From Candidatus Micrarchaeota archaeon (lineage in GTDB: Archaea; Micrarchaeota; Micrarchaeia; Anstonellales; Bilamarchaeaceae), in contig CAZYJW010000002.1 in the NCBI GenBank assembly GCA_964647855.1, forward strand, positions 244,399 through 308,398: a stretch of DNA of 64,000 nt, in the 5' to 3' direction. This document shows, piece by piece, positions 40,929-64,000 of this stretch (position 1 is the stretch's first letter; every line of letters starts with the position of its first letter). The notes under the pieces were generated by a model. The model worked only from the letters and a program-made list of their open reading frames with translations, had not been told where the DNA came from and ran no database searches. The position numbers and the translations under genes are program-made.

Positions 40929-43900
40929 GTGATGGGCATGACCGGATTCAAGATGAGGGGGGAGTCAGGGGCCCAGGGCGCTGCTCCGGCCATATCCGAC
41001 CGAACAGGAGGCGCCCTGGCAAATCAGACTCTGGCGGATTTCAACGCGGTCTGGCAAAGGCACTTCGGGGGCACCGCCATAGCGGCGATAGCCGAGGTCT
41101 CTTCAAGGCACGTGTCGCTGATTGCCGGCAGCATCGACCGCAGGCTCGGGATAAGCGATTTTCTCGGCTCCACCTCAGGGCGGCCACAGGCGGCAATCAT
41201 CTCCAACCTGTCGAACCAGGCCCTCATAGCCGCCCAGCAGGACCAGATGCAGCGGGCGATAGCCCTGATTAAGGAGGCGGACGAGAAACTGCAGGCGGCC
41301 GTATCGGTGGACAGGCGCGGCAAGGACCTGGACGAGGCGGAGGCAAAGGAGAAGGCGAAGGATGAGAGCGCAGTATCCGAGGCGAAGGAGGCCCTCACCG
41401 CCTCGATTTCCGACGCGGGAACCGCCAGCGCGGGCAGGATGCAGATGATAGGCGAGGCGGTCGGATTTTATGCAAGGAACCGGGCCGTCCTAGGCCTTCC
41501 GGGGATGGAGGAACAGAAACGCGCGCTTCTCAATTTCATCACGGCCCTCGGGCGCGAGGCGAAGGAAGGCGGCTTGTTCGAGAAGGAGGCGAAAGCGGGG
41601 GAATTCGCTGCAATCCGGGGGCGCATTGAGCCTGTGGCGATGGAAAGGACCGGCTTCGCGCTTGCGGCGGCCACCAGCGCGATGGAAAGCGCAAGCCGCG
41701 CATTGGGGCTCGGCGGCGTTTCCGCGGAGTTCAGGAAGGCCGCCATGCGCATCCGGGATAATGCGGAAAGAATCCGCAATGCCATGCGGGAGGGCGGGCA
41801 GGCCCCGGAGGAGCAGACGCGCGGGCTGATGGCGGCCGCAACCCTCGCGAAACAGGCGAACGAGGCGCTGTCCGCCATGGGCGGGCGGCTGCGGGAGCAG
41901 GTGAGCACGATATTCGCGCGCATGCTGGATGCGGGACAAGCCGGGGACATGAAAACCGCCGGGGTCCAGGCATTCATCGCAAGGGAGTGCGCGCTTGCGA
42001 AAGCGCCGGCGAGGGAGGCCCTGGGCGCGATAAGCGCGTCGCTCGAATCCGGCAAAATCAGGCTGTCGGAGGCTATTGACGGCGCTGCGAAATACATATC
42101 GGGAATCCTGAAAGGGAAGGCGAAGGGCATAGTGCATGAGGGCGCCCTCAATCCGCTAAGGAAACTGATTGACAGGCTCGATGGGGGCAAGGCGACGGTC
42201 AACGACCTGGAATCCGCAAGGATCGCAGCCGGGCTTGCGGAGAGCTACAAGAAGGACATTCCGGCGCTTTCGAAGAACGCAAAGGCGCAGGAAGGCGCGA
42301 AGGCGATTTATTCGAGGGCGTTCTCGGCGGCTGCCGGAGGGCTTGTGCGGTTCGCCTCGCTCCAGGGCCGCATCGCCGGGCTTTTCGGGAAGAAGAGGAT
42401 GTCCAAGGTCAGGGATGGCCTTGAGGGGATTTCCAACAGGGCTGAGAGGGCCGCGAAGCTGACCATCCTGCACCAGCTTGTCAGGGAGGGGATGAAGCCG
42501 GATGAGGCGGCATTGCTTTGCGCGGAGGGTGACGAAAGCATCCTGAACTCCTACAAGGCGATGGCCGACCCGGATGCAACGCTTGAGGCGGAAGGGAAGA
42601 TGCTGGAGATGTCGGTTTTCGCAGCTGAGCTGAGAAGCGTGCTTGCCAAGAAGGCCCTTGGGGACGAGAGCGGGATATACAAGGCGGCGGTGGAATGGCT
42701 CGACGAACGGATTATATCGGCGATAGCCGGCGGCGGCCAGCCGCACGCGCAGGACAACCGGGCGCTTTTCGCCCTCGCGGCAATCCACAGTGGCGACTCG
42801 CGCGCGATGGCGCAGTTCCTCCTTGAAGAGCCGGAGCTGCTGGGCCTGATGGACGGCGTCGGCGGCATCGAAACGGCCCTTGAGGGGGTCCACGGGGATG
42901 AGAAGGCGGACGTCCAGGACATCCTCTGGAGCGCGCAGGAGGCCGTCTTCGGGGGGAGATTCGCCGAGGCGGCGGGGCATATGGTTGCCGCGAGCGCCGC
43001 CGCCAGGCTGGGGGGGAAGGACGGGAAGATGCTCGAGGAGCGCAGCTATGGCGCGGCATGCGAGGGCACCGTGAGCGCCCGGACGCTGCTGTTCACCGCG
43101 AGGGCCCAGCTCGACAGGGCGCTGCACGCCGGCAGGGGCGACACTGAGTCGGACGCATACTTTGATGCCGCCATAATCGCGTACGAATCCGGCGACTTCA
43201 ACGGGGCGCAGGCCGCGCTTTCGCTCGCGAACCTTTTCGCGAGGGCTAAATCCGCCGGGCTCTCCGACCCGCGGGGGCAGGAGGCGGCTGCCATGGCGAG
43301 GGAAATCCTCGGCGATTACCGGGGCGCTTCCGGCAGGCCGCTTTTCGGCGGATGCGGCCTTCGCGGCATGATTGGCGGGGATGGCACGCTGCTGGAGCGG
43401 CTGGAGGGCGCGGCTGCGGATGCGGGCCCCATGGCGGGATGGCTTGCCGGATTCTCCGGCGAAAAGAAGCTGGCGGCCCTGGCGCTTCGCGTGAGGAAGG
43501 CCGAGATCGGGCTCGGCCGGGCGGAGATGGGCGCGGCCCTTCTTGCGGTCACGGACGGCAGATATGACGATGTCTATGCGGGGCGGGAGGACAGATACGC
43601 AGACAAGGCGGCATCGGCGCAGAAAAAAGGCGATGCCGTGAATGCTGAGCGCTGGAGGAAGGAGGCGGAACGCGTATCGAATGCGCGCGGTCTCGCGAAG
43701 GGGGCCGCGCTGGCCTACGAGGAGGGCGCGCAGATGCAGGAGCAGGAGTTGGACGGGATGCTCGATGAGCTCGCCCGGGGCGGCGCGCCGTCCGAAAGCG
43801 GCGCACTGAAGGACGGGGCTCTGGCGGCAGGCCTCTCGATAAGGGCGATGGAGGCGGCCTCGGTGCTCCATGACAGCATAGTGAACGTGCGCACGGACGA

Positions 43901-46900
43901 TAAGGAGGATGGCCGGGAGGAGCTGGAGCGCGCCGCGGAGGGATTCCTTAAGGCGGCGACCGCGTTGGAAAAGGGCGCCGGGGCGGATGCGGCCCTTGTT
44001 TCATATGCGGAGTCCGACCTTGCATCAGGTATGGTGGCGGTCGGGAAGCAGAAGCGGATACAGCGCGAGGAGAAAAGGATAGAGAAGAAGCTGCTCGAGA
44101 TGATTGCCGGATGCCGCAGCAGGAACGAGGAAAACAAGAGGGAGTTCATCGATTCCGGGCTGGACGCGCCGCTCACTGACATCTATACCGACCATGGCAC
44201 GGTGCGTGCCGGGGAGGCCGGCCGCCTCGTTAATTATGAGGAGAGGGCGAGGGAGCTCGACGATGCCGAGGAGGATGCGCTGGGCCGCAGATTCCGGGAT
44301 TCGTTCCGCCATATCAGAGCCGCGGAAATCGGCATGGAAATCGACAGGTACAGGGCGGGCGTCGAGGTCGAGTACAGGCGCCTCTATCCCAAGCTTGAGA
44401 CCGCCTGGAGCGAGGAGGGCCTCCAAGCCGTCGAAGTAATGAGGCAGATGGGCCGCGAGGACATGCAGAAGGACCTGTTTTCTGCGGACGCCGCACTCAG
44501 GCGGGGGGATATGGAGGAGGCCGCCGAAGCCATAGCGGGGTTCGGCACAAGATTCCGGGTGGGCGTCGCAATCCAGGAAATCGCACTCCAGGAATGGACG
44601 CTCGGCCGCATATCCTCGGGCCTGGGCGGAATGGCGGAAGCCGCGGCCGGATTCGGATTCGATGAAAAAGTCGTGAAGGAATCCGGCGTGGATTTCACCA
44701 AGGACGCGGGATACGCCATAGAGAAGCTGGGCGAGCACATAAAGCTCAAGAAGGCGACGAACCCGTTTTTCGGATTCGGCGCGCACGATGAGAGCGTTCG
44801 GGCCGTGAGAGCCATCTCCGGGGCAAAGAGCATGGCCATGAAGGCGGCGGAGCTGAAAAAGGCAGCGGACGATACCGCCTCGGCCCTTCGCTCCGAGCGC
44901 ATGGAGCTTCGGGAGCGCCAGGAGGCCGGGGACGGAGACCGTGCCCTTGAGGAAGGGAGCGGAAGGATAGGGAAGCACTTCGAGTCCGCCTCCGAAATAT
45001 CCGGGCGCTATTCGCGAATCGGAGATGGATTCCAGCTTTGGTCCTCGTGCGCGGGGCAGATGCTAAACCTGCTGGACGGGGCCGATTCCATAGAGAAGGC
45101 CCGCGGAAGCGGGGGCTCGCAGGGCGTGCAATACCGCCAGATACGGGAGGATGCGGGCGTTCTGGGGCAGCTTGCGGGCATGGTGGCGTCCGACCCTGAA
45201 GGCGCGGTTGCTTTGGTCCTTTCCGGCCAGTCGGTCGCATACCGGATGGGCACGGGGGATTTCAAGCTGCGCGAAGAGCATGGCGGGTACGCCGAATCGT
45301 CCATACCCCTCCAGAGCCGCAGCGGCAGCTTCGCGGAGCTCTTCGCGCAAGCCAACGAGCGCTCCCTGCATGTCGCCGAGGCTCTTTCGGGAGGACTGTT
45401 CGGAAAGAGGGGGCGCTCCCTCCCAATCGCCAAGGATTACACCGGCCTGGTTCTCCTGAACGCGGGCATCGCGCAATCCGGGGGGGCGCTGAAACAGGTG
45501 GCGCTCGGGCAGAGGGAAAGGGGCGTGGTTTCGCGTGCGCTGAACGGAAGCGGGGGGGCCAACCAGATGATGGGCATGTTCTTCTCCGCCCCGGCGACCC
45601 TGACCAGCTTCTTCTCTACGGACGAAGGCGAGGCGGCGCTCGACTCCATAGTCGGCGGCCTGGAGGCGGGCTCTTCGGCATCCGAAGAAATAAGCAAATG
45701 GGCGCTCCGGGGGGAGCGCATGGATGCTGAGGCTCTCGGACGCCTCTCCGCCCGGATTGACGAGGGCAATAAGAGCGCGAAAAAAGCGTATGACCGGGCA
45801 ATCAAGGAGGGCCTGAGCGACGAGAGCACCGCGAGGGGCGTGCGCGCGCTCTTCGATATGGGCCTTTCAATAGGGCTCACGGCGAGCGGGTTCGGCTCGG
45901 TGGCCGGAATATACGGCGGCACCATGGCCCTGCAGGAGCTCGCTTTCCAGAGCGACAGGGCGGGGGGTTTCGACAACCTTTCCACTTTCGACCAGGTGAT
46001 GGGAGTGGTGAACGTCGGGACCGGATTCGCCGACGGGGCGACGTCATTCCTCGGCGAAATCGGGAAGGCGGGTGGCGCGCTGCACAGCATGCGCATGATT
46101 GACGCGGGGTTCTCATCGTCGGGCCGGGCCGGCAGGATGGCGCTCAGTTTCATGCCGGGTGGGGCCGGCTCCACATGGGCCGGCCGCATCCTCGGCTCGA
46201 CTTCGCTAATTTCCGGCGCGGCCGGCATCCCGATGATGGTTGCCGGATACGCCGAAGGGAAGATGAACTGGTTCGAGTTCGGCGTGGGATTGGCCGGTTC
46301 CCTCCAGCCGGTCGTCGACCACGGCACCGCCTCGCTCGGCTATCGCGGAATGAAAAAACTCGTTCCGGAGGAAGGGGGAGGAGGGCGCGGCGCAAGGGCG
46401 AAGGCCGCAATCCGCGGCTTCGTGTTCGGTTTCACGGGCAACTCTATAATTGGCGACACGGAGGCATACTCGTCCGTACACGCCATAGAAGAGCATGGGA
46501 GGGCGCTATCGAAGCTCAAGGAATCCGAAAGGTCGGATTACTTCAAGGCCGAGGCCATGGCGGAGAGGGGGCTCGGCAGGCCCCTTGAGCCGGAGGAGGG
46601 GGCGTACCTCGCATCGATAATCGGCGGAGGTTCTGCGGGAAAGGACGCCGTTGTGGAGATGCTCGCGAAGCCGAGGATGGATGCCGATTTCCGGATGTAC
46701 CTCATGCGGAAGGCGGGCGAGGAAATCGACCTTTCCCAATTCAACGCGGATGAGAGGCGGTTTCTGGAAGGGCTGCTGCCCCTTGACAAGGATGCCGCAT
46801 GGAACGCGATTGCGGGCAGGGAATACCGCGAAGCGGAGCGCATTCTCGTCGGCGAAGGCATCGAGGCTCCGGGCTTCCACCCGTTTGCAAGAAGGGTTGG

Positions 46901-49413: not shown

Positions 49414-50562
49414 ATGAGAGACCCCACCCATAGGACTAGCGCTCATCGCAGGCCTTGCGCCCCGGGACGGACGGAAGCGCCCGGGCCCAGGCTTAGGGAG
49501 ATTGTGAAGCCCCCGTCGGTCTACATCTCGAGCAGGTCCTCCCTTCGCGGGTTCTGGTACAACAAGGGCATATTGGCGAAATGGAACAGGGCCGACCAGG
49601 TCCTGCACGGCATGAGGTGGGACTACTACAGAACGTTCGGCATCAGGCTGGCGGACATTTCGCTAATCGAGAGCCATTTCATGCGCAGGCACGCCCAGCT
49701 CGCGGCTGAAGAATCCGTGGAAAGGATGCGCCCGCCCGATTTGCGCCCATCGTGCGCCGAGATGTTCCACAGCCAGGAGGCGCATCATGCGGCATGGGCG
49801 GCCCCCCCGCGCGGCGCCGGGCGTGGCCGGGCATGCGCATCCGGGCAGGACCCGTATCAGGATACCCTGAACTTGCGCGCCTTGCAGGAAACCCCGCGCC
49901 AAAACCCGGCAGCGGCGGGCGGCTACGCAGCGCAGACTGATGATGCGCGGGAGGTGGCGGGGATTCCTTCGCGAAGGATGGCCGCGGAACCCGCCCCGCA
50001 TCCGGCCGTTGCCGCATATCCCGAATTCCGTGCGAAAGCCGCTCCGGCGGCATATTCCCCAATGGAGGAATCCGTGCAATCCGGAACCGTCGTCACCCCA
50101 TACGGAAATCCGCTACAGGCCCCCGCGCTTCCATCAGAATGGATGCGGAGCGGTGCGGGGGGCAAGGAAGCGGACGAAGCCCCCGTGGCGCGTCCGTGCG
50201 CCCCGCCCGTGCGTGATGTGCGGGGCTTCGGGTGCCCGCGCAATCATCATAAGGCCCGGAGCATGATTCAGGTTGCGCGGCCGCCGGCTCCCAGTGCATC
50301 GCAGGCAGAGATGGAAGCGGACGGAGCGCCCCAGGTCATCCGTGGGATGGATTCGGGCGGCCGGCATCGCGAAACACTCCGGGTTCATGCATGCCGGTTC
50401 GAGGCGTTCGCGCCGCAGGGCGATGGAATCAGCAGGGGGCTGACGCCCCCCGCAGAAAGCGGCCCGGGGGCCGTGGAACGGAAGGGAACGGAAATTCCGC
50501 CCATAAGGAGAAAATCCTTGCGCCTGAGGCATGCGAGCGCGGATGCGATGCCGCCGCAATGA
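49414..50562 (+). CDS. Hypothetical Pro/Ala/Arg-rich protein
   Basis: 382-aa ORF. A consensus TATA TTTATAAA lies at 49383-49390, 24 nt upstream of the ATG (leaderless spacing). The N-terminal ~110 aa look globular and the rest is low-complexity. Coding status is uncertain in GC-rich DNA. Confidence 0.45.
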   Translation: MRDPTHRTSAHRRPCAPGRTEAPGPRLREIVKPPSVYISSRSSLRGFWYNKGILAKWNRADQVLHGMRWDYYRTFGIRLADISLIESHFMRRHAQLAAEESVERMRPPDLRPSCAEMFHSQEAHHAAWAAPPRGAGRGRACASGQDPYQDTLNLRALQETPRQNPAAAGGYAAQTDDAREVAGIPSRRMAAEPAPHPAVAAYPEFRAKAAPAAYSPMEESVQSGTVVTPYGNPLQAPALPSEWMRSGAGGKEADEAPVARPCAPPVRDVRGFGCPRNHHKARSMIQVARPPAPSASQAEMEADGAPQVIRGMDSGGRHRETLRVHACRFEAFAPQGDGISRGLTPPAESGPGAVERKGTEIPPIRRKSLRLRHASADAMPPQ

Positions 50563-51132
50563 TCACTTGTCGAACCGCGACATGTCGTCCGCGACGCGCG
50601 GCTGGTATTCCGCTATGATTTCCTGCGGGGACGGCACCGCGAGGCCGTGCAGGCTCGAGCAGGCCGAGAGAAGGGGCTCGTTGTCGAGCCACCGCCCTAT
50701 CATCTCATCCTGCGTGGAGAAGTAGAATCTGGCGGAGAAGTCCGAGCCGAGCCGCTCGCGCATCGTCGCATAGAGAGAGAAGCTGCCCAGCGTCCCCCTC
50801 TTGTGGACGATTTCACGGAGCTTCCTGAGCCGCTCCACCATGAAGCGCCCGATGCAGAGGCGCGCGACCGCCAGGCCCGCCTCCTCCGGCTTCAGCGACT
50901 GTATCCTTCCGGAAAGGGATTCGAGCGCTTCGTTGTACGCCTTCTCGGCCATCGCGATAGAGACCGAAGAATCGTCCTCGTCCCGCAGTGCCTTGGGCAC
51001 CGGCCCCCGGTCCGCGTCCGCAAGGCCCTCGTAGAAGCGGATGAGCTCGATGCGGTTCCTCTCATGAATGCGCATGGCCGCCGTGTCGGCCCGCTTCTCG
51101 AAAATGTTTTCCTCGGATTCGGAGCCTTCCAT
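50563..51132 (-). CDS. Hypothetical protein, paralogue A of a tandem pair located between the two giant ORFs
   Basis: 189 aa. It shares blocks with 51175..51792: AGLAVARLCIGRFMVERL vs AGLALRVARISFALYMLDKM, RFYFSTQDEMIGRWLDNEPLLSACSS vs RYFMKSRDEILDGYLDAEPALAAISA, and EIIAEYQPRVADDM vs EAIGKYQPKVASMM. Confidence 0.65.
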   Translation of the reverse strand: MEGSESEENIFEKRADTAAMRIHERNRIELIRFYEGLADADRGPVPKALRDEDDSSVSIAMAEKAYNEALESLSGRIQSLKPEEAGLAVARLCIGRFMVERLRKLREIVHKRGTLGSFSLYATMRERLGSDFSARFYFSTQDEMIGRWLDNEPLLSACSSLHGLAVPSPQEIIAEYQPRVADDMSRFDK

Positions 51133-51174: not shown

Positions 51175-51792
51175 TCACCTGGAGGCGGCAACGCCCGCCG
51201 GAAGCGGCTCGATGGGCCCTTCGGGCATCATGGATGCGACCTTGGGCTGGTATTTCCCGATGGCCTCGTGCATCTCAAGGAGCCGGACCCGGCACACCGC
51301 GGATATCGCGGCCAGCGCCGGCTCGGCGTCGAGGTAGCCGTCGAGTATTTCGTCGCGGCTTTTCATGAAATAGCGCTCGTCGAGAAGGCGCCCCACGCCC
51401 GCCCTTGCCGTTGAAAAGAGGGCCGTCATCTTGAAGCCCTTGTCCGACTGCACCGCGCGCGATATCTCGTCCATCTTGTCGAGCATGTAGAGCGCGAACG
51501 AAATCCTTGCGACGCGCAGGGCCAGCCCGGCATCCCCCCGGGGCGGGTTCTCGCGGTCGATGTATTCGGCCATTTCGCGAATCGCGGCCGGGATTTTCTC
51601 GCGTATGCGGGAAAAATGCCACATGCCGGTGAACGCCTCCTCGCGGAGGGACTGCGGCGCCTTGGACTTGTCGGATTCAATCGAATCCTTGAACGTCTTC
51701 ACGAGGGACGCGATGTTCTCCCCCCGCCTCTGGAGCGCGCGCATCTCCATAGGGGAAAGTTGCCTCCCTGCCATGGCACTATTTTGCACCAA
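51175..51792 (-). CDS. Hypothetical protein, paralogue B of the tandem pair
   Basis: 205 aa, homologous to 50563..51132 (see the blocks listed for that gene). An AT-rich promoter region lies upstream at 51800-51860. Confidence 0.65.
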   Translation of the reverse strand: MVQNSAMAGRQLSPMEMRALQRRGENIASLVKTFKDSIESDKSKAPQSLREEAFTGMWHFSRIREKIPAAIREMAEYIDRENPPRGDAGLALRVARISFALYMLDKMDEISRAVQSDKGFKMTALFSTARAGVGRLLDERYFMKSRDEILDGYLDAEPALAAISAVCRVRLLEMHEAIGKYQPKVASMMPEGPIEPLPAGVAASR

Positions 51793-52291: not shown

Positions 52292-52296
52292 GGCTT

Positions 52297-55200: not shown

Positions 55201-58200
55201 GCCGACCTCCGGGAAAGTTCGGAAGAGGCGAGGGCCGCGGGCGATTTGCAGGTCGCGGACTTCTACTCACAGGAGGCCGCGCGCGTGGACCGAGGATTCG
55301 TGCGCACGTCTGTCGGGGCTGCGCGCAGCGCCTTCGCGCGCGGGCAGGACGCCCTCGAAGAGGCGAGGGGGCTCGTCCGCGAGGCGGATGATGCGGCGAC
55401 GAAGAGCGCCGACCAGATGCGCACGCGCATCGGGGAGCTTAGGGCGGCGCTTCCGCCTGCGCGGCAGGCCGAGGTCGACCAGATGCTCCGGCAGGCCGGA
55501 ACCGACGAGGCCCAGGTAAGGGTCGTGTACACCGGGCTGCTCCGCCTGCGCGCGCAGGAGCGGAGCCGCGAGGGGACCACGCTGGTCGAGGACGCGGGCC
55601 TTATGCTCGACGGCATCAGCTCCTACGACCGGAGTGTCAGGTCTGTCACAACCATACATTCATACAGCGGAAGGCGCGAGCTGCAGATAGGCGTCCTGAC
55701 GCTCGCCGCGGTATCCGAAGGCTACGATGTGGACCTTCTCGGCCAGCCGGTCATGGTGAGGGAGGCGCCTGCGGCGGCCGGCGCGCAACCGCAGGAGGTC
55801 CGGGCGAGGGCGAGCGTGGAGAGGCTCGCCGCGCTCCGCGGGAACGGGCGCGGGCAGGTTGCGGTCGGCCTGCGCTCGGTCGAGGGGCAGGAACGCATCA
55901 TGCGGGCGAGGTGGAGCACGGTCACTAGGGCGCAGCGCGAGGTGCGCGACGCGAACGAAACGCGCATCCGCGGAATCATCGACAACATGCTCCAGGACGG
56001 CGGCCCGGGCAACCCCCCGCTCATTGCTGATGCCGGCGCCAGGGAGAGGTTCAGGGCGAGGCTCGCCGCGATAGGCGGGGTGACCGACCGCGAGCAGAGG
56101 GCGCGGCAGTACCAGCAGCTTTACCTGGAGGTCGGACGCGCGGCCGGCGTCCGGACCGAATCGCGGGGGGCTCCCGAATGGCTCACCGCGGGCGGACGCG
56201 GCGTTCGGGGCGAGACGCTCTACGACGCGGAGGCGCATTATCGGAGGTACCGGACGGCCGTGGGCCTCGCCTACCGCGAAAGGTTCGACGCCGCGAGCAC
56301 GCACATACGAAGCTCATCGATCGAGATACGCGAGTCGGGGGCGCTCGCGACGAACCGCGTGAACGAGCGCAGGCTCACCCTTGCACGAGACGAGGCGCGC
56401 GGGAACTCGTTCGGGCTGGCCCATCTTGCAGACCTGAGGCGCTGGGGGATGGTCAGCGAGGGCGTGGGCATCTGGGGCAACACCTACGACACAATGTTCG
56501 AGCATGTGATGAGGACCCCGGCCGTGGCGATGGAGCAGGTCGGGGCGATGATAGAGCACCTCCCGCCGGCCGAGAGGGAGAGCTACCGCGCCCGGCTCGA
56601 TAGCGCCCTGCGGAGGGGCGTCGAACGGCGGAGTTCCGCTGTCCTCGACATATGGATGGAGCTCGCCTCGAGGCATGTCAATCCGCCGCAGACCGAAGAG
56701 CCGGGAAGAATGGGCCGGAGGAGCACTACGCTGCTCGATGCCGTGGTGGGCCAGGACCTTTTCTACTACGACGCGGACGGCCTCGAGAGGAGGATTCTGC
56801 GCGCGAGGGGCATGCGGAGGGAGGGCAACTCCACCGGCGCGGAGAGCGAGATGGACGGCGCGCTCAGCGACATGGCGGTCCTTGAAACCGCCGAGCGCAG
56901 GGGCATCGAGCGGACGAGGGACGAGCGCACGTTCTGGGCCCGCTACCATGAGAGGCACCCGAGCAGAAGGCGGGGCTTTGGAGAAGCCGGGCGGACCGCC
57001 CGCGAGAGGCTCACGCGCGAGATTCCCCGGAGGCCCGATGGCGAGGAGGTGGATGAGCGCACGAGGGGCGCCATAGAGGACAACAACGCCGCAAGGGAGC
57101 CGGAGATACGGGGGATTGAGGCGAGCGCGGACCGCTCTATCGGCTACATGAGGTCTTCGGTCCGGGCGAGCAGCGCCGCGATAGACGAGCTGCTCATGCA
57201 CAGGGAGCCGGTGGACATCGCATCCCCGGAAATCGCGCAGGAGCTTTATTTCGCGCTTCCGGAGGAGGCGCAGCGCAGATACCGCCAGTACATCGACCGC
57301 CTCCCGTCCAACGGCGAGAGCACGGAAACCGCGGAGGCGCGCAGGGCCGCGCTCGAGTTCTACAACGCGCTGCGCGGGAACAGCGCTGACTTCGGGGCCG
57401 CCGTAGGCCGCATGAGGCGCGAGTCCGGGCCGGGCGGGACGTTCTCGAACATGGTCGGCGTGCTAGCCCAGCTCGAGGCCGACCAGGCCACGCTGCAGTA
57501 CCGCACATGGGACTACAACGAGGCATACGCGAGGCAGACTGCGGAATTCCTGGTCCAGTATGCGGGCACCGAGCTCGACCGCATGGAGAACGCGGAAAAC
57601 CGCAGATACCTGACAAGCAGCCAGGAGCACCATGATTTTGCGCGCACCAACAGGTATGGATGGGCGCCTCATGGCGGCGAGTACCGCGCATCCTACCAGC
57701 ACAGGGAGAGGGCGACGCGCGCCCTCGAGTTCGCATCCGCGCTGCTGGAGGAGGGCAACGCGCGCAGGGCGGCTGACATAATCCAGAACAACGAGGTGCT
57801 CACCGCGAGGGGGATGTACCGCGAAACACGCACGCCCCGTGAATGGCATGACGATCACGGCCTGCGGCTTGGGCTCGCGCACAGGCAGGGCAACGAGTAC
57901 GGGTTCCGCGCCACGGACCAGCTTTGCGGCCTTATTTACAGGGGGAGGATGGAGGTCCTCTCGTACTACGACGAGGACGCGATGGCCGCTGCAAGGCCGC
58001 GCATGCAGCAGATGGCCGAGATGGAGATAGAGCACACGCTGCGGAGCCTCGGCATCCAGCGCACGGTCGGGGCCGATGACGAAATTTATTACGAACGCTG
58101 GCAGCCGCCCTCCGAGGAGGCGGCGCAGGCATTCGCGGATTCGGGCAGGCGTCTGATGAACCAGCTCGGCGAGCACGACTCGTTCATACTCGGCCAGTCG

Positions 58201-61200
58201 GACGCGTCGCTGCTGCTCGGCTCCTGGATAGGCTCTGAGGAGATAAGGTACAACGAGGCGACATTCGCGATAGCCGACCGCTCCTGGAGGGCCGCAATGA
58301 GGGCCTCGCGCGGCGAAGTCGACGGAAGCAGGACGCTGCTTGCGAGGGTGGACGAGCTGACGCCGGAGCTTTCCACCGCGCGTGGCCAGGTGCAGGACTG
58401 GGCCAGCTACCAGAGGGCGGCGGGTCTTGGCATCGACATCGTTGCGATTGCCGGCACGGCGATATTCGCGCCGGAGTTCCTGCCCGCGACATTCATGATG
58501 ATGGGCGCCCGCGGCGTGGGCGAGGGTCTCGAGATGCGCAGGCAGGCCGGCGAGTGGACCGGAGAGGCCATATTCGCGACTTCGATGGGCGCGGCGGGCA
58601 TGGTGCTCGTGCCGCTTTCCGAGGCGGCATCTCTGATGAGGGCCGCCCAGATAACCCGCGGCCTCGCCAGGGGCGCGCAGTGGGCCGAGAGGGCGGTGGC
58701 CGCAGAGGAGGCCATGGCCGTCGGGTTCCGCGGCTCGAGGCTCACATCCCTCATGAGTGCTGGGCAGGCCGAGCGCACCGCGCTCATGGAGGCCGCGCAG
58801 GCGCTCGGGGAGGGACGGACAGTGCTTACTACCGGCGGGCAGATGCTTCGCGCGGGCACGCCCGAGGCCGCCGCATTCCTCGGGCAGGACGCCGGATTCC
58901 TCGTGAGGGCGGGCCAGTACGTTCGCGGAGGCGCGGAGCTGACAGCGTTCCAGAGGGCCGTCCACATAGCGGGCCTTGGAATGATGGGTGCCGGCGGAGG
59001 GCAGTTCCTATACCACCTGCCCCAGCAACTTGACGCGCTCGGAAGCGGGCAGACCACGCTGCTGGAAGTCGGGCTCGGCGCATGGCTCTCGGTCGGCCAG
59101 GCGGTCGGCCAGGGAGCGTATGCCATCCGCGCCGCAGGCTCGGCAGGCCCCACGAGCGGATACATACCGAGGCCGATGCAGTACCTGGCGGCGGCCGCAT
59201 TCGGCATACCTCTCACCCCGAGGCCTGCGCACGTCATGGCGAGGGACAGCGCGCTTGCGGCGCGCGAGCTCGCGCGCATGCCCGCGCAGGAGCGCACGTC
59301 CTACGAGGCTTACAGGGACAGGAACCGCATCACGCTCGACCCGTCCGAGGAGAGGGCGATTGTTCGCGACTACAACGAGGCGAGGACGCGCGCGGAATCA
59401 AGGGGCGAGACGCTCACGTTCGATTCGTACATGCAGAGGCCGACCGCCGAGGGCGCAAGGAGGCTTTCTGCGGCGGCCTTGGAATCCGGGTACCAGTTGT
59501 ACAGGGCGGGGCAGATGCCCGCGTCGGACCTCACGCCCGCCCTGCGCGCATATTCCGAATCTCGGGCCGGGGGAGCGGAGCCGCTCGATGCGGCGGCCGC
59601 GGCGCTAAGGGCGCCGGCGCAGCCCCAGCCGGCGGAGGCTCCGGCAGGGCCCTCGCGCGCGGCGAGCATGGCGGCGCGCAGGGAGCGCGCTGGCGCGGCT
59701 GCCCGCCTCGAGACGGAGCGCAGGCAGTATGGGCAGGACATCGCGCCCCACATAGACAGGGTCGCAACTGATTCCGGCGCAACGATACCCCCCGCGCTTC
59801 GCGCTTCCGCGGCCGACCTCGCGTTCCATGCGGAAAGGCTCGCAACCGCGCCACCCGGGCAGAGGGCCGAGGTGCGCGCATCGATACCCGAGAGGCTGCG
59901 CACCTCCGCGGAGGTGCTCTCGCGGGAGCCCGAGTTCAGGGACGCGATTATCGGGCGGGACGGCGCGCGGCTTGAAACCCCGGACCGTTCGGCTCAGATG
60001 AGGGCCGCCCTGGAGGAGGCCGCGACGATGCCGGCCCATTCCGGAATGCCGGAGACGTCGCGGATGAGGCTCGCGCTGAACACGGAACGCATCATAGGCA
60101 TGAGGGACCTCACGGCCGAGGACCTCTCGGGCCATGCGGAGAGATACGAAAGGCGGGCGGGAAGCCTGCGCGAGGAGGGCAGGACCGCAGAGGCCGACGC
60201 ATGGGCCCGTAGCGCGGGCAGGCTCAGGGCGGAGGCCGCCCGGCGCGCGCCTGCGGCTCCGGGCGAGGAGGCCCGCGCAGCTCCGGCTCCTAGGCCGCGC
60301 GCGGCTCCCGCCGAAGAACATGTTCCCGCCGCGCCGCGCGCAAGGCCGCCGGAGACTGCGGCCGCAAGGAGCAGGAGGGATGCGGTCGCCGATGCTCCGG
60401 CCCAGGACCAGTTCAGCCCGGACGCCGTCGCAAGAAGGATTTTCGAGCGCTCGCGCCAGGAGGGAAGGGAAGCGTGGACAACCGGCGGCCCGCTGCTCGA
60501 AACCGGCACCATACTCCGCAGCGTGGAGGATTACGTCCTGCGCCTCGCCCGGGCCGGGGAGGAGCGCGACGTGGTGGTTCTCACCGGGGACAAGACGCTG
60601 CTGAATGCAATCAACGAGTTCCTCGGAAGGGAATGGGGCGACATCGGCCTCGACGCATACCAGGCGATTCTCCAGCGCGCCATCAGCAGGGTCATAAGGT
60701 CCGGCGGGGGCACAAGGCCCGGCGAGGACGTCGCGCTTGTCAGGCCCTCGGCACGGAGCGACGAGACGGTTTCCGTGCTCGTGCTCCGCCGCGGCAGGGG
60801 CGAGCAGGTCCGCGCGAACCTGCAGAGGGAGATAGAGGCCGCGACAAGGTGGGTTATGGAATCGCCTGAGTCGCCATTCCGCGCCCAGTTCGCGAGAATC
60901 CGCGGGCTGGTAAGGGACCCGGCCGGCCTAGCGGCCGCGAGCACCGAGCGCAGCAGGGTCATCAGGATACGCAGGGACGAAAGGGGGCGCGTAACCGCCA
61001 CATATGCGGGCGGGGAGAACGCGTTCATACGGAGGCCGGAAGGGAGGACCGAGTTCCTCACGGCCGCGGTGACGAGGACCGACGACCCGCATTTTGCGGG
61101 AGGGCTGCGCAGGGAGGTGCACCTGAGGGAGGACCCGAACGTCAGGCCCGCGCTCGAGCCCTATGAGCAGGGCCGCGTCCAGGACGCATGGCAGCGCAGG

Positions 61201-64000
61201 GAGGCGCCCAGAAGCGACGCCGAGAGGGCGATGGTGGCAAGGATGGAGGCCGTGCTCAGGGAGAGCGGCGCCGAGCCGTCCCGCGCCAGCGCCGAGCAGG
61301 TCGAGGCCGCGATAATGAGGGTCGCGTGGGAGAGGGCGAATCTCCCCGAAAGAGGGGTGGTCGGCGCTGAGGGCGTGGCGCTCGAAATAAGGCTGAGCGT
61401 GACCGACCCCGCGACGCTCGCGAGGCTTAGGGGCTTGCTTCCGGAGACCGGAAAGGGCCTTGCGGAGGTCCTCGCGAACCGCTTCGGCATCAGGGGATTC
61501 AACACGTTCTTCGGGCATGACGGCGCCAACGCCGCAATCAACCTTGTCGAAGCCGCAGTCGCATCGTACGCCACGAGGCACAATCTCACCATAAGGAGGA
61601 TGGGGACGCTCAAGTACGTGATAGAGGGGGGCACTCCGGAGCTCGCGCGCGGCCTCCAGGATTTCATTTCGGAGCACCTCCAGACCAGCGGCACCGCGCT
61701 CGGGGTCGCGAGGGACATCCCGGTCATCCCTGTCGGCGCTGATACTTCGGTGGCCACAGCGCTCGCGCACGTTGCAAACGGCCACATGGTTGTGGAGCGC
61801 AGGAGCCTCGAGCGCAGATTCCCGCATCTTGCCGGGATGACGGACGCCGAAATCCGGGCCACCGACTGGGACGGGGAAATCCAGAGGTACGCGGACGCGA
61901 ACGCACTCATCAACGCGATGGGGAACCGCATGGCAAGCGATGCGCTCCTGCGGACGCTCCTCGGCGACAGCTATGACGCCATGGCCCCCATAATCCAGCT
62001 TGTCAGGGGACGCAGGGACATCAGGAATTTCGAGGACCTCGTGCTCGCGCTGAGGGACCCGCAGATAGGCGGTGCGCAGGGGCGCGTTCTCGAAGGCGCG
62101 TTCCGCAGATTCGTCGTGGAGGAGGGCCGCGCGTTCAGGCTGAGGGTGGAGGCCATACCACGGCCCATGAGGCCCGCCGAAAGCGAAGCGCAGGCGGTGC
62201 GCCTGCGGCTCGTTGCAGGTGGCGAAGCCGAGGCCGCCGCGGGGGGAAGGGCCAGGCGCGAGGAGGCGCCAAGGCCCGCGCTTCCTTTCAGAGAGAGGGA
62301 GGTCCACAGGATGGAGCGCGAGGTAGGCGCGATTCCGCAGCCGCGCGCCGACGCGGTGTTTTCCAGAGGCCCGCCCGAACTTCTGGCGATAGCCCGCGTC
62401 CTTGATTCCATGGTCCCCGGAAGCACCGTGCTTTCGGAAGGCGGGCTTCGGAACCTGATGCGCAGGTATCCCGAGTATGCCGAAGCCCTGCGGGCGATGA
62501 ATGAGATTGAGCCTGTCGGCCGCGACCTTGTGATAGAGGCTCACGCGCCGAGAATCCTTTTCGAGCGCGCGAGCCTCCGGCTCGAGCACGCGATAGCCGG
62601 CGCGGGGGATTCTCCAGCGGTCGCCGAGACCGCAAGGCTGATGCTGCGCGGGAAGCACGGGCTGGTGCAGTCTTTCTCCGAGATGGGCTCGCTTGACCTG
62701 AACGTATTCACAAGGGTGCAGGAGAGGATGGCGCTCGGCATGGGCGAAGCCGATGCCATCCTGTCCGTGGCGCGGGAAATTAACGGGGGCGGGTCTTCGC
62801 CGCCCCCCTCGCCGAGTCCGATCCCGACAGGGCCCAGGGGCGGCGGCGGGCCCGGAAGGGGAAGGAGGCCCAGGGGGGGCGAACGGCCGGTTCTCAGAGT
62901 AGTGAGGCCGGATGAAACAGCCGCCAGGGCGCCGGCAGCTCCGCCCGCACGCACGGATGCGAGGGCACCCGCGCCTGTCCCGGAGGCGTTAGTGCCAGGC
63001 GGGTTCAGGGACGCCGCAAGGAGGGCAGCGGGGGCAGCCGCAGAAAGGCGCACCGGACCGGCGGACCTTGCGGCAAGAAGGGAAGCAATGCTTCTCGAGC
63101 AGGCACAAGCACGCGAGCGTACGCTCGTTTCGCCGCGAGATTTGGCGGAATTCGCGAGGATGGTCGCAAACGGCGAGCAGGTGCAGGCGGGACGCGTGCG
63201 CCTCAGCGCCCGCGACCTTTTGAGCAGGATGGACGTGCGCGTGCAGGGCGAGGTCCTTGCGCTCGCAAACGATGCGGCTTTCGCGCAGGCCGCGCGCAGG
63301 CCGGCCGCAGGCGGCGACGACGTGTTCCGGCACCACCTCCAGGGCAGGAGGGCCGAGGTGGAGGCGAGGGCGGGGCGCATCAGGGGCGCCGCCCCGGCGG
63401 AGCGCGAGGCCGCAGCCAGGACCGGAACCGACGATGCAGCTGCAGCGCCGCCTTCAGCGGTAGGCAGGTTGGCTGAAGCGGGCCCGATAGCGCCCGGCAG
63501 CATAGTGGCTATGAGCGGGCCCCATGTTTCGCCGTCGCGCTACAATCATCTGCTCGGCGCGTACCAGCACATGGAGGCCGGAAGGCCGAGCGGTGCGGGC
63601 CCGCGGACAGAGCGGCTCGCCAGGCAGGCTTACGAGCAGGTCAGGCGCGGGGTTCCGCGCGAGCAGGCGGTTGCGAACATACTCGATGCCAATCCCCCGA
63701 GAGGGAGGGACGACCTCGGCTCCGTTGCCATGGAGCTCTTCGATGTCGCGGAGGCGATGGTGTCCGGCAATCCGGAGAGGGTTGCGGCTGCAAGAAGGCA
63801 TTTCGAAACGCTTGGTGCTATGCAGCGGGACGCGCTCCTTTTCCTAATAAGCGAGGGAAGCGGATTCTCGCAGGGCGATGCCGCCCATAGGGCGGTGATG
63901 GCGGAGCGCCTCGCAAGGAGCATAGAACTCGAGCAGGGCGGGCTTGTCGAGCCCCTTTCAAGGGACAGGGTTGTCGCGCTTGCACGCGCCGCAGACCGGC
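52297..64000 (+). CDS. Giant protein 2 (more than 3,900 aa, partial; runs off the right edge), unknown family; central hydrophobic block and two GGDEF/palm-like domains
   Basis: Hand translation from ATG 52297 (MTQQQRRQAAPPQAEQPIAERVIHDMSRTPAMMAGRETAARAF...) stays open to the end of the window. The ORF track lists no plus-strand ORF in this frame after 52297, as expected for one ORF lacking a stop in the window. Frames were spot-checked at 60541-60600 and 61441-61560. Confidence 0.8.
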   Translation, partial: MTQQQRRQAAPPQAEQPIAERVIHDMSRTPAMMAGRETAARAFLQEQQAALEARRASERLAATLGITPTRTAEAARADFDQAAGAMRARLAALREHNVGVESLDRRNQQIVQILERQLGRIEERARSGDTEGAGQAMRAFSTVMNGVARTASIVANMVREGAPPQLAERVDQASAFDVGGASLRARALRRVGEVFTARAAVFRAREGEGVTRDLAQEALRLTSVESNQTDLTREQYDASMRTLETISTTATSIGNELNRLYQSTLTYYLQTLAEVLTRDVSDQVKQRIRRLIQDVTETRDRYGREGETPPTEAELGSIASRIRTAQEAADALSDKTTLTAEARRHLETVYVGALDALAAGRTQAGETLSAAADEIRRLGRAAGFGRLGRDARRAVSEYLSSLARAAGAIASAETPEARAEAEGTMRATIARRLAGELQGAARTLGGESERLLNGIIGQLGEHPERATMDNLRALAGALSACQKMLGFANVRMPEEQRQALTGIFNRGLQAIAGGDLRSAGMQFRLMDLYASRDATATQRSELNQLSQMLATQGAAALDVIDRYMRVNDRITNLRTQAARGSLGRSERAEFDRLISEMERMRANLAASGSMVSDEEAAAHVTALRARMRENREFRDTIANLVRVNRREGETEEQAEARILDYVARGELEEAAQRRFDEMGRLADSFLSSLGARQGRERTNVVTIFRNAISALLGGNMEDARRFRSAGEAYASLRDPRDRRTLMDILAGTEGRPAPRAGQSVFTERELRMLDVLGQWSRFDETVRGTGESRNARAYFDLAMWVARQGTREEFQLVMDMASAYGAIASVDPRTLPSEMREQRSAEMRRIQGALGDFSREARRLSDIGADRARGGWRPREGQLTPLAGAIVLEGSFTRRLGEGDASLAPGLSGDALAEAQTEAGARRLVELQGQADAAGRLAQSLGFEVRCRQAEGPASAERATERRYQRVAADLRESSEEARAAGDLQVADFYSQEAARVDRGFVRTSVGAARSAFARGQDALEEARGLVREADDAATKSADQMRTRIGELRAALPPARQAEVDQMLRQAGTDEAQVRVVYTGLLRLRAQERSREGTTLVEDAGLMLDGISSYDRSVRSVTTIHSYSGRRELQIGVLTLAAVSEGYDVDLLGQPVMVREAPAAAGAQPQEVRARASVERLAALRGNGRGQVAVGLRSVEGQERIMRARWSTVTRAQREVRDANETRIRGIIDNMLQDGGPGNPPLIADAGARERFRARLAAIGGVTDREQRARQYQQLYLEVGRAAGVRTESRGAPEWLTAGGRGVRGETLYDAEAHYRRYRTAVGLAYRERFDAASTHIRSSSIEIRESGALATNRVNERRLTLARDEARGNSFGLAHLADLRRWGMVSEGVGIWGNTYDTMFEHVMRTPAVAMEQVGAMIEHLPPAERESYRARLDSALRRGVERRSSAVLDIWMELASRHVNPPQTEEPGRMGRRSTTLLDAVVGQDLFYYDADGLERRILRARGMRREGNSTGAESEMDGALSDMAVLETAERRGIERTRDERTFWARYHERHPSRRRGFGEAGRTARERLTREIPRRPDGEEVDERTRGAIEDNNAAREPEIRGIEASADRSIGYMRSSVRASSAAIDELLMHREPVDIASPEIAQELYFALPEEAQRRYRQYIDRLPSNGESTETAEARRAALEFYNALRGNSADFGAAVGRMRRESGPGGTFSNMVGVLAQLEADQATLQYRTWDYNEAYARQTAEFLVQYAGTELDRMENAENRRYLTSSQEHHDFARTNRYGWAPHGGEYRASYQHRERATRALEFASALLEEGNARRAADIIQNNEVLTARGMYRETRTPREWHDDHGLRLGLAHRQGNEYGFRATDQLCGLIYRGRMEVLSYYDEDAMAAARPRMQQMAEMEIEHTLRSLGIQRTVGADDEIYYERWQPPSEEAAQAFADSGRRLMNQLGEHDSFILGQSDASLLLGSWIGSEEIRYNEATFAIADRSWRAAMRASRGEVDGSRTLLARVDELTPELSTARGQVQDWASYQRAAGLGIDIVAIAGTAIFAPEFLPATFMMMGARGVGEGLEMRRQAGEWTGEAIFATSMGAAGMVLVPLSEAASLMRAAQITRGLARGAQWAERAVAAEEAMAVGFRGSRLTSLMSAGQAERTALMEAAQALGEGRTVLTTGGQMLRAGTPEAAAFLGQDAGFLVRAGQYVRGGAELTAFQRAVHIAGLGMMGAGGGQFLYHLPQQLDALGSGQTTLLEVGLGAWLSVGQAVGQGAYAIRAAGSAGPTSGYIPRPMQYLAAAAFGIPLTPRPAHVMARDSALAARELARMPAQERTSYEAYRDRNRITLDPSEERAIVRDYNEARTRAESRGETLTFDSYMQRPTAEGARRLSAAALESGYQLYRAGQMPASDLTPALRAYSESRAGGAEPLDAAAAALRAPAQPQPAEAPAGPSRAASMAARRERAGAAARLETERRQYGQDIAPHIDRVATDSGATIPPALRASAADLAFHAERLATAPPGQRAEVRASIPERLRTSAEVLSREPEFRDAIIGRDGARLETPDRSAQMRAALEEAATMPAHSGMPETSRMRLALNTERIIGMRDLTAEDLSGHAERYERRAGSLREEGRTAEADAWARSAGRLRAEAARRAPAAPGEEARAAPAPRPRAAPAEEHVPAAPRARPPETAAARSRRDAVADAPAQDQFSPDAVARRIFERSRQEGREAWTTGGPLLETGTILRSVEDYVLRLARAGEERDVVVLTGDKTLLNAINEFLGREWGDIGLDAYQAILQRAISRVIRSGGGTRPGEDVALVRPSARSDETVSVLVLRRGRGEQVRANLQREIEAATRWVMESPESPFRAQFARIRGLVRDPAGLAAASTERSRVIRIRRDERGRVTATYAGGENAFIRRPEGRTEFLTAAVTRTDDPHFAGGLRREVHLREDPNVRPALEPYEQGRVQDAWQRREAPRSDAERAMVARMEAVLRESGAEPSRASAEQVEAAIMRVAWERANLPERGVVGAEGVALEIRLSVTDPATLARLRGLLPETGKGLAEVLANRFGIRGFNTFFGHDGANAAINLVEAAVASYATRHNLTIRRMGTLKYVIEGGTPELARGLQDFISEHLQTSGTALGVARDIPVIPVGADTSVATALAHVANGHMVVERRSLERRFPHLAGMTDAEIRATDWDGEIQRYADANALINAMGNRMASDALLRTLLGDSYDAMAPIIQLVRGRRDIRNFEDLVLALRDPQIGGAQGRVLEGAFRRFVVEEGRAFRLRVEAIPRPMRPAESEAQAVRLRLVAGGEAEAAAGGRARREEAPRPALPFREREVHRMEREVGAIPQPRADAVFSRGPPELLAIARVLDSMVPGSTVLSEGGLRNLMRRYPEYAEALRAMNEIEPVGRDLVIEAHAPRILFERASLRLEHAIAGAGDSPAVAETARLMLRGKHGLVQSFSEMGSLDLNVFTRVQERMALGMGEADAILSVAREINGGGSSPPPSPSPIPTGPRGGGGPGRGRRPRGGERPVLRVVRPDETAARAPAAPPARTDARAPAPVPEALVPGGFRDAARRAAGAAAERRTGPADLAARREAMLLEQAQARERTLVSPRDLAEFARMVANGEQVQAGRVRLSARDLLSRMDVRVQGEVLALANDAAFAQAARRPAAGGDDVFRHHLQGRRAEVEARAGRIRGAAPAEREAAARTGTDDAAAAPPSAVGRLAEAGPIAPGSIVAMSGPHVSPSRYNHLLGAYQHMEAGRPSGAGPRTERLARQAYEQVRRGVPREQAVANILDANPPRGRDDLGSVAMELFDVAEAMVSGNPERVAAARRHFETLGAMQRDALLFLISEGSGFSQGDAAHRAVMAERLARSIELEQGGLVEPLSRDRVVALARAADR

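Follow-up and report, generated by a model that had tools for sequence, protein, structure and literature searches.

What do the two giant open reading frames (ORFs) of this locus encode, and where would their products act? The locus lies in a 64,000-nucleotide stretch of DNA (hereafter the window) from a Candidatus Micrarchaeota archaeon (assembly GCA_964647855.1, contig CAZYJW010000002.1, positions 244,399 to 308,398). A first reading of the bare sequence (the original prediction) had described two giant ORFs of no recognisable family, laid out in three parts like large translocated toxins, and had proposed that they and their small neighbors form a dedicated multi-gene system. We find that both ORFs are genuine genes and, by profile comparison, remote paralogues, that they carry variable sets of enzyme-like modules behind a hydrophobic block, and that ORF2 belongs to a fast-evolving gene cluster conserved in about 25 related genomes. 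As to where the enzymes act, we argue tentatively for the symbiont–host interface.

The two giant genes are:

40929-49346, + strand: giant ORF1, complete, 2,805 amino acids (aa); start codon GTG at 40929 or ATG at 40932.
52297-64000 (window part), + strand: giant ORF2, the first 3,901 of 6,948 codons; open at the window end.

ORF1 starts directly behind the stop codon (TGA, 40926-40928) of a DHH/RecJ-like gene. ORF2 begins with ATG at 52297, 5 nt past the stop of a gene for a 108-aa protein, and reads open as far as base 63999. We searched 1.84 billion representative proteins exhaustively by profile, and among the matches is a public NCBI protein (P0004; 6,948 aa, encoded on a 378,670-bp contig) identical to ORF2 at all 3,901 window residues, so that the full ORF2 gene is about 20.8 kb long and the window holds 56% of it. 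This protein and the coordinates above bear out the predicted extents of both giants. The GC content at codon positions 1, 2 and 3 is 0.66/0.49/0.77 in ORF1 and 0.69/0.54/0.83 in ORF2; it is uniform along both ORFs and agrees with that of the genes for prolyl-tRNA synthetase (ProRS) and the DHH protein. Moreover, P0001 (3,003 aa), which comes from an independent assembly, is 48% identical to ORF1 from end to end, and ORF2-type proteins of 7,238-7,322 aa are seen in several independent assemblies. Given the codon-position GC and the homologues from independent assemblies, ORF1 and ORF2 are coding genes and not chance ORFs. As predicted, both products are rich in Ala, Arg, Glu and Gly (ORF1: A 15.7, G 12.2, E 9.3, R 8.1%; ORF2: A 16.3, R 13.8, E 9.0, G 8.9%), and self-BLAST and TRF found no internal or tandem repeats in either. 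Their N-termini, read from the translations, likewise have no hydrophobic h-region or signal peptide, as had been noted.

We next asked whether either giant belongs to a known family. Scans of ORF1 and of the window part of ORF2 against Pfam and NCBIfam gave no match, and sequence searches of PDB (with ORF1 plus P0001, with ORF2 and with the C-terminal 900 aa of ORF2) gave no significant one. A homologue search with ORF2 aa 2650-3901 returned nothing, and in this search low-complexity words probably filled the candidate list. Where family members carry names in NCBI or IMG, these refer to single domains only or are hypothetical. The profile searches that had been suggested as a check placed neither giant in a well-characterised family of Pfam or NCBIfam. 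At that level the description "no recognisable family" stands; it does not extend to fold and motifs, where kinase-like, palm and PPP domains can be recognised.

The N-terminal part of the layout consists of a long scaffold and a Gly-rich hydrophobic block:

40929-45488, + strand: ORF1 N-terminal scaffold (aa 1-1520), rich in Ala, Glu, Arg and Gly, paralogous to the ORF2 scaffold.
45489-46568, + strand: ORF1 Gly-rich hydrophobic block (aa 1521-1880), from hydropathy and jackhmmer.
58357-59256, + strand: ORF2 Gly-rich hydrophobic block (aa ~2021-2320), from hydropathy.

The scaffold spans 1,500-2,000 aa in ORF1 and ORF2 and 1,500-2,600 aa across the family; it is presumed from its composition to be helical, and it is the least conserved part of the giants. 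Direct BLAST comparison of ORF1 with ORF2 revealed weak similarity. A profile of the ORF2 scaffold, built after ORF1 and its orthologue had been taken out of the training database, matched ORF1 aa 387-922 collinearly with its positions 430-977 (E 3.3e-26), and the same profile matched neither reversed ORF1 nor any of 50 shuffled copies. The ORF1 scaffold is also collinear with P0002 in BLAST. Judged by these comparisons, ORF1 and ORF2 are remote paralogues rather than independent giants. These paralogues of one genome differ markedly in amino-acid usage: Lys makes up 0.2% of ORF2 and 4.9% of ORF1, Arg 13.8% and 8.1%, respectively, and GC at the third codon position is higher in ORF2 (0.83) than in ORF1 (0.77).

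The block, about 300 aa long, is the part of the scaffold that can be recognised most widely: jackhmmer recovers it from about 20 giants, in each at a distance of 1,400-2,600 aa from the N-terminus. By hydropathy, its hydrophobic stretch covers aa ~1537-1803 of ORF1 and aa ~2040-2280 of ORF2. In ORF1 it contains four conserved, nearly uncharged segments (aa 1644-1662, 1690-1708, 1749-1767 and 1785-1803). The ORF2 block, which is recognised in P0011, P0009, P0012 and P0027, has a Kyte–Doolittle hydropathy of 1.72 at aa 2041-2059 and uncharged stretches at aa 2221-2245 and 2258-2277. With such segments, membrane association of the block is plausible.

Recognisable modules lie C-terminal to the block in every mapped relative in which a block is detectable, and the predicted three-part layout is thereby upheld, although the order and content of the modules vary. 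The linkers between them are of low complexity (Pro/Ala/Gly/Arg). The modules found behind the block, in N- to C-terminal order and under our labels, are:

ORF1: PEY, kinase.
ORF2: palm, PEY, rep, PPP, x, rep (three times), C-terminal domain.
P0005 and P0114: order as in ORF2.
P0011 (giant 2 of locus L001): palm, kinase.
P0007: kinase, palm.
P0002: PPP.
P0025: kinase, HD.
P0027: kinase, C-terminal domain.
P0023: palm, GNAT, kinase; no block detected.

The prediction of enzyme-like domains in the C-terminal regions proved correct, the domains being a kinase-like fold, a GGDEF/Cas10-like palm and a PPP phosphatase. The individual modules of the two giants are:

48246-48848, + strand: protein-kinase-like domain of ORF1 (aa ~2440-2640), from an AF2 model, Foldseek and conserved residues.
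60361-62196, + strand: GGDEF/Cas10-like palm module of ORF2 (aa 2689-3300), from alignments A3 and A11, AF2 and Foldseek.
Outside the window: PPP-type metallophosphatase of ORF2 (aa ~4396-4760), Pfam Metallophos, 34.1 bits against a cut-off of 21.5.
47304-47714, + strand: PEY junction module of ORF1 (aa 2126-2262), with the motif ARxLxxL...PEYxxAL.
62389-62781, + strand: PEY junction module of ORF2 (aa 3365-3495), followed by a Gly/Pro/Arg low-complexity linker.

The AF2 model of the ORF1 kinase-like domain (pLDDT 71.8) displays the kinase order of elements, namely the five N-lobe strands, alphaC, hinge, catalytic loop and DFG-equivalent. Foldseek returned 254 PDB matches at E<=1e-3, and all 50 matches listed are kinases or pseudokinases, with A. 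fulgidus Rio1 (TMt 0.46) among them. Across 81 sequences the G-loop Gly, the Lys of VAxK (VAIK in ORF1), the alphaC Glu, the D.Q loop and the DFG-equivalent Asp ("FIDME") are conserved, and the catalytic-loop Asn is missing. No kinase profile of Pfam or NCBIfam matches ORF1 at E<=1, and the same is true of ten stand-alone homologues. Based on fold and residues, the module is an atypical kinase-like domain, predicted to be active. It resembles minimal kinases of the RIO/Bud32 type in its compact fold, G-loop, VAxK Lys, alphaC Glu, and catalytic and metal-binding Asp residues, and also in having no long activation segment. In contrast to these kinases, it has no Pfam kinase match, it forms part of giants and has a helical extension behind it, and the Asn of HRDxxxxN is absent; a conserved Gln two positions past the Asp may substitute for it. 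The module is also present, apparently twice, in a 7,727-aa protein of Candidatus Omnitrophota (P0032, MFC1623747.1) annotated as a glycoside hydrolase family 15 protein, which makes it common to giants of unrelated ultra-small symbionts and predators.

In the ORF2 palm module, the first unit bears the motifs GDK..N..G...GD and R.S.R[SG]DE. Alignments A3 and A11, which include stand-alone relatives of about 550 aa, reveal an invariant D-K, N, G and R...DE in the register of a GGDEF palm, and a degenerate second unit with KG..E and N..G follows downstream. The module itself has no Pfam match, and a search of PDB with its profile returned nothing. Among 19 palm members, no Pfam family but GGDEF recurs (in 5 of them, always below threshold; at best E 4.5e-4 and 17 bits, where the cut-off is 23.8). 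The best Foldseek match of the modeled structure is Cas10/Cmr2 (4doz, E 1.2e-3, probability 0.90, TM-scores <0.2), and after it come further Cas10 proteins and adenylyl cyclases of class III. By its motifs and matches, the module appears to be a divergent GGDEF/Cas10-like enzyme of the nucleotide cyclase or polymerase type; this assignment is well supported for unit 1 and tentative for unit 2. With the palms of GGDEF proteins, class III cyclases and Cas10 it shares the motif register D-K..N..G..GD ... R..[SG]DE, and it may comprise two tandem units, the arrangement seen in the pseudo-dimers of Cas10 and mammalian adenylyl cyclase. On the other hand, its signature is [RS][SG]DE instead of the GG[DE]EF of GGDEF proteins, the conserved unit precedes the degenerate one, opposite to the order in Cas10, and, again unlike Cas10, it has neither an adjoining HD domain in ORF2 nor a CRISPR context. 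A stand-alone homologue of 574 aa (P0077) is encoded in JGI metagenomes (L083-L086; L083:4035-5759).

The PPP domain of ORF2 displays the motifs GDVHGD, GDYIDRG and GNHE, and the PDB sequences nearest to it belong to PPP-like protein phosphatases and PP2A. The PEY module, about 135 aa long, occurs in 16 proteins, with one copy in ORF1 and three in full-length ORF2; the copies in ORF1 and ORF2 are 31% identical over 109 aa in BLAST, and the motif never occurs in shuffled sequences. The cargo of relatives includes GNAT and HD/HD-GYP-type domains (HD_5, 82.8 bits). A region of ORF2 that looked GNAT-like by eye (aa 5481-5640) was rejected, having no Pfam support and no relationship to the validated GNAT domains of relatives. 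Outside the window, ORF2 also carries several unassigned modules and ends in a domain of about 570 aa (aa 6381-6948) without a Pfam or PDB relative, which also closes the giants P0005, P0009, P0012 and P0027. Downstream of the L002 giant it is encoded by separate genes (L002:23305-26082 and L002:28608-29618), indicating that it can be split from its carrier.

Is there a dedicated gene system around the giants? Their neighbors in the window are:

39573-40928, + strand: DHH/RecJ-like gene, 451 aa, with Pfam DHH, DHH_CID and DHHA1; left anchor of the cluster.
49414-50562, + strand: 382-aa protein, with about 130 conserved N-terminal aa and a Pro/Ala/Arg-rich remainder; without a Pfam match.
50563-51132, - strand: 189-aa protein of a paralogous ~190-aa family without a Pfam or PDB relative.
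51175-51792, - strand: 205-aa paralogue of the 189-aa protein (jackhmmer E 3e-59 to its profile).
51965-52291, + strand: 108-aa helical protein, directly 5' of ORF2.

We used the DHH alignment as bait against one genome per GTDB species, which yielded 80 loci, nearly all labelled Candidatus Micrarchaeota (DPANN) and with a best identity of 71-72%, and searched the neighboring genes individually by jackhmmer. A conserved order emerged: DHH, a ~370-aa gene, zero to four ~190-aa paralogues, a ~110-aa helical protein and a giant. It is kept in loci L001-L033, where the DHH protein is at least about 58% identical (58-72% in the metagenome-assembled genome (MAG) loci L003-L033) and GC content ranges from 0.37 to 0.64; in all, about 25 Micrarchaeota genomes possess it. 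The order is absent at the DHH position of more distant Micrarchaeota (L034-L082). Recurrence of the neighborhood elsewhere had been named as a test of the predicted multi-gene system, and its presence in about 25 genomes supports such a system. In the window, the canonical set consists of the last four genes listed and ORF2. The ~370-aa homologues directly follow DHH in about 25 loci, the ~190-aa genes almost always lie on the strand opposite to the giant, and a ~110-aa homologue stands 5' of the giant gene in at least 20 loci. Alignment A9 of the ~110-aa family contains the conserved residues E43, W49, W76 and L97, and neither the 108-aa nor the ~190-aa family profile has a relative in PDB or Pfam. 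The Pro/Ala-rich ORF and the paralogous gene pair predicted between the giants are both there: the 382-aa protein is 15% A, 12% R and 11% P, and the E-value above links the pair.

ORF1 lies between DHH and the ~370-aa gene, an arrangement found only here and in L001, and looks like an extra giant paralogue inserted next to DHH. Its two closest homologues sit in the same gene context. Elsewhere, a second giant is located upstream of DHH (L003, L006) or on the other strand (L019). The observation that ORF1 abuts the DHH stop is correct for this genome but not as a general feature, since in most relatives it is the ~370-aa gene that follows DHH. The predicted translational coupling of ORF2 to the 108-aa gene amounts here to a 5-nt gap; in some orthologous loci the two genes truly overlap. 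Two candidate extensions of the small families were discarded, as hidden Markov model searches gave no match: a fused 108-aa copy in ORF1 or other giants, and membership in the ~190-aa family for the ~190-aa genes beside P0077 (L083).

Among the cluster-bearing loci are LFW-283_2, the type material of 'Ca. Bilamarchaeum dharawalense' (order Anstonellales), and another Bilamarchaeum MAG of the same order. For 'Ca. Anstonella stagnisolia', of the sister family Anstonellaceae, the reported GC content is 62.2%, near the window value. The window also holds an archaeal S-layer gene and an archaeal-type ProRS, and the L002 contig has ribosomal protein genes. Searches of GTDB, JGI metagenomes and IMG/VR with the ORF1 alignment as bait returned nothing, the query in this case being two weak peptide patterns. 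The best explanation is that the cluster is a lineage-specific, vertically inherited chromosomal feature of Anstonellales-type Micrarchaeota.

Several further observations concern these genomes. The S-layer gene (18824-21841, - strand) encodes a 1,005-aa protein with archaeal S_layer_C (PF05124), likely the S-layer protein of this Micrarchaeon. A second, divergent ~110-aa copy is found on the far side of DHH in L026 (9114-9422, - strand), where a 1,194-aa ORF follows it, and in L028 (2435-2743, - strand), which suggests further, smaller members of the system in some genomes. The long-read MAG L010 has its giant gene, which follows the 108-aa homologue, broken into four overlapping frames (15406-21332), reflecting either sequencing frameshifts or a decaying copy. 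Within the window, a low-GC island (29900-36872; GC 0.36-0.49 against 0.60-0.70 around it, with no tRNA in the window) carries the following genes:

30005-30832, - strand: Mrr-type restriction endonuclease.
31156-31584, - strand: 23S-rRNA-IVP four-helix protein.
31985-33841, + strand: 618-aa Zn-ribbon/Ig-like/trypsin-like protease.
35781-36872, - strand: tyrosine integrase, at the right edge.

Since it is absent from syntenic loci, the island is probably an integrated element with defence genes. For the same reason, and because of its different composition, we rejected the island and its integrase as part of the giant system.

How does the cluster evolve? Identity to the window is 65-91% for ProRS and 58-72% for DHH, compared with 23-47% for the giants and 23-49% for the small partners, so that the cluster diverges much faster than its flanking genes. 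Moreover, modules are shuffled at orthologous positions: where ORF2 has palm, PEY, PPP and so on up to the C-terminal domain, giant 2 of L001 (P0011) has palm and kinase. This pattern resembles that of genes in conflict systems.

Anstonellales-type Micrarchaeota are DPANN episymbionts with small genomes, normally about 1 Mb. For such an organism, a possible reading, which we prefer tentatively and with less than even confidence, is that the giants are membrane-associated polyvalent enzyme carriers acting at the symbiont–host interface, in the host cytoplasm at the contact zone. As chaperone or adaptor, the ~110-aa helical protein would bind the giant; the hydrophobic block would anchor it in a membrane at the host contact zone, and the tethered enzymes would modify proteins and nucleotide signals in a cytoplasm. 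A cytoplasm is where they would have to act, because the cargo enzymes require ATP, NTP or acetyl-CoA; membrane insertion, the roles of the small proteins and the host as target are what we infer. Four considerations make us favor the host cytoplasm: the genes evolve in a conflict-like manner, they are costly for a small genome, SPEARE and Archaeovorin proteins provide precedents, and material is transferred between DPANN cells and their hosts. Cytoplasmic content has been described to pass between DPANN archaea, including Micrarchaeota, and their hosts (cited by Hamm et al., PMC6642349), and giant multi-domain proteins of other episymbionts and predators have been implicated in host interaction (PMC6642349; 10.1101/2023.11.21.568195). 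Of the original prediction of a cell-cell or host-interaction system, the dedicated, conserved cluster is there to be seen, and its targeting of a host is the part that we infer.

The same enzymes could serve the producer itself. In this alternative, a serious rival that we regard as possible but on the doubtful side, the giant is anchored in the producer's own membrane, and scaffold and enzymes in its own cytoplasm regulate its own physiology, for example in response to host contact, with the long scaffold arranging enzymes along the cortex. A number of observations weigh against action in the host, most of them by agreeing with this alternative. Both giants have no signal peptide, and no secretion-system, autoprocessing-protease or immunity genes were recognised in the cluster. 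The conserved hydrophobic segments number four, and this even count is compatible with the two ends of the protein facing one side of the membrane, so that scaffold and cargo could both stay in the producer's cytoplasm; furthermore, family-averaged hydropathy brings only two of the four near transmembrane strength (1.40 and 1.36), the other two being weaker. Kinase, phosphatase, cyclase and HD-GYP domains are a standard toolkit of intracellular, self-directed signaling. The stand-alone palm gene P0077 has a housekeeping context, adjoining an archaeal ribosomal protein operon (L3-L4-L23-L2-S19...) in four samples, which suggests an endogenous role of the palm enzyme. The palm assignment carries its own doubts, as the AF2 model, with two beta-alpha-alpha-beta-beta-alpha-beta units in the predicted element order of a palm, is of low confidence (pLDDT 59.5) and the two units do not match significantly in hhalign (E 0.36). 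Stable chromosomal synteny across an order also speaks for regulation of the producer's own physiology. On the other hand, divergence faster than the flanks and module shuffling among close genomes would be unusual for core signaling, and about 29 kb of coding sequence is costly in a small genome. Unrelated enzymes strung on disordered linkers characterise effector and conflict proteins, and the extra paralogue and variable number of ~190-aa copies likewise look conflict-like. The predicted likeness to translocated toxins is affected by the same evidence: it holds for layout and enzyme cargo, and translocation into a host is at most a possibility, as neither a signal peptide nor genes for secretion, a protease or immunity were recognised.

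Action at the symbiont–host interface could also take a more elaborate form, which we judge unlikely. The cluster would then be the first archaeal cell-to-cell effector system, in which a giant, anchored by its Gly-rich hairpins at a fused membrane or cytoplasmic bridge, threads its chain of linker-separated enzymes into the host cytoplasm without a dedicated secretion machine. The chain (kinase, PPP phosphatase, Cas10/GGDEF-like synthase of nucleotide signals and, in relatives, GNAT or HD-GYP) would rewire host phosphorylation and nucleotide signaling to the advantage of the symbiont; the ~110-aa protein would be the chaperone and the ~190-aa proteins self-protecting inhibitors.

Alternatively, the giants might build the symbiont–host link itself, as a tether, ruler or bridge to which the enzymes are accessory. 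In its favor, most of the protein is made up of the very long scaffold, the hydrophobic block has been conserved, and with the SPEARE proteins there is already an example of giant attachment proteins in DPANN archaea. A structural or adhesive role is nevertheless improbable: no adhesion-type domains (laminin-G, Ig, PKD, cadherin), repeats or signal peptide were found, the scaffold is the least conserved part, and the enzyme modules keep catalytic-type residues.

It is also very improbable that the giants are polyvalent proteins of a virus, plasmid or integrative element, delivered with its DNA against host defences. Multi-enzyme single polypeptides do recall polyvalent proteins (PMC5512222), and the low-GC island with its integrase lies 4-11 kb upstream. 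This interpretation is largely refuted, as the overall and codon-position GC of the giants agrees with host genes and not with the island, and the same ProRS/DHH synteny is present in many island-less genomes of very different GC. Besides, tblastn against 50,697 phage and 72,556 plasmid records gave no match, IMG/VR none, and hallmark polyvalent-protein domains were not detected with Pfam or NCBIfam.

Finally, an artefact, be it chance ORFs in GC-rich DNA or a misassembly fusing unrelated genes, is refuted by the uniform codon-position signature of both ORFs, the full-length homologues from independent assemblies, the identical 6,948-aa protein in NCBI and the conserved domains and catalytic-type residues, even though DNA of 65-70% GC makes long spurious ORFs common and many overlapping ORFs of 100-760 aa do occur on other frames.

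Very few of the molecules by which DPANN archaea attach to their hosts, feed on them and control them are known. That these archaea have giant host-interaction proteins is established, and a full-text literature search found no description of the present giant family or cluster. New here are the conserved gene cluster and several protein families that Pfam lacks: the scaffold with its Gly-rich block, the PEY junction module, the ~110-aa and ~190-aa partners, the two-unit palm enzyme, which also stands alone in archaea, and the atypical kinase-like domain. ORF1 and ORF2 amount to about 29 kb of a genome that is normally about 1 Mb. The cluster provides clonable candidates for symbiont–host manipulation or else for an unusual giant signaling scaffold, and the cargo activities (kinase, phosphatase, nucleotide cyclase/polymerase, acetyltransferase, HD-GYP) can be tested in vitro.

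How do the giants compare with known systems? They are not SPEARE proteins, MARTX toxins, classical polymorphic toxins or polyvalent proteins of mobile elements, each of which differs in a defining feature, although on paper it is these systems that they would most resemble in their working. Large clostridial toxins and MARTX toxins, like the giants on paper, combine a large delivery region with hydrophobic segments and a string of effector enzymes destined for the target cytoplasm. Hallmarks of MARTX toxins are RTX-type Gly-rich repeats, a cysteine protease domain for release and a type I secretion system (T1SS) signal; large clostridial toxins have a glucosyltransferase, an autoprotease and combined repetitive oligopeptides (CROPs). 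In contrast, none of these features was detected in ORF1 or ORF2 with Pfam or NCBIfam, the giants have no repeats, no sequence relationship was found, and the genes next to them are unrelated to T1SS. Unlike polymorphic toxins (Rhs, CdiA, LXG), the giants have no N-terminal trafficking domain detectable with Pfam or NCBIfam, and their cargo consists of signaling enzymes rather than nucleases, deaminases or pore-formers. Nor does a small same-strand gene follow ORF1; the ~190-aa paralogues lie upstream of ORF2 on the opposite strand and are conserved instead of hypervariable.

Polyvalent proteins carry 2-15 unrelated enzymatic domains per polypeptide and are encoded on phages and conjugative elements (Iyer et al. 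2017, PMC5512222). The giants share with them the domain shuffling and rapid evolution typical of conflict systems, whereas polyvalent proteins are encoded by mobile elements and have DNA-centred anti-defence domains, and the ORF1/ORF2 cluster is chromosomal and syntenic across an order. Archaeovorins of Omnitrophota are non-repetitive giants with many enzyme domains, from ultra-small predators or symbionts (West-Roberts et al. 2023, 10.1101/2023.11.21.568195), and GGDEF is among the frequent domains of giant Omnitrophota proteins (10.1101/2023.11.21.568195). They differ in being bacterial, often longer than 10,000 aa and rich in glycosyl hydrolases/transferases, peptidases and methylases aimed at cell walls, and they do not share the scaffold, the hydrophobic block or the small partner genes. 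The kinase-like module of the 7,727-aa Omnitrophota protein P0032 is, nonetheless, a point of direct likeness.

SPEARE proteins of Nanohaloarchaeota are non-repetitive, multi-domain proteins of up to 8,553 aa from DPANN episymbionts (Hamm et al. 2019, PMC6642349). They bear laminin-G and other adhesion domains, a serine protease, a BC-toxin-like region and a type III restriction-enzyme region, and are mostly extracytoplasmic, with a transmembrane segment near the C-terminus (PMC6642349). Pfam searches detected no SPEARE-type domains in ORF1, in ORF2 (window part and aa 3851-6948) or in P0002, P0006, P0015, P0027, P0116, P0117 and P0025; the scaffold, the cargo (kinase-like, palm, PPP, GNAT, HD) and the partner genes of the ORF1/ORF2 family are unrelated to SPEARE. 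What the two families have in common is that each takes up several percent of a small genome, includes a transmembrane region, at least as proposed for the block described here, and has been assigned a proposed role in host interaction.

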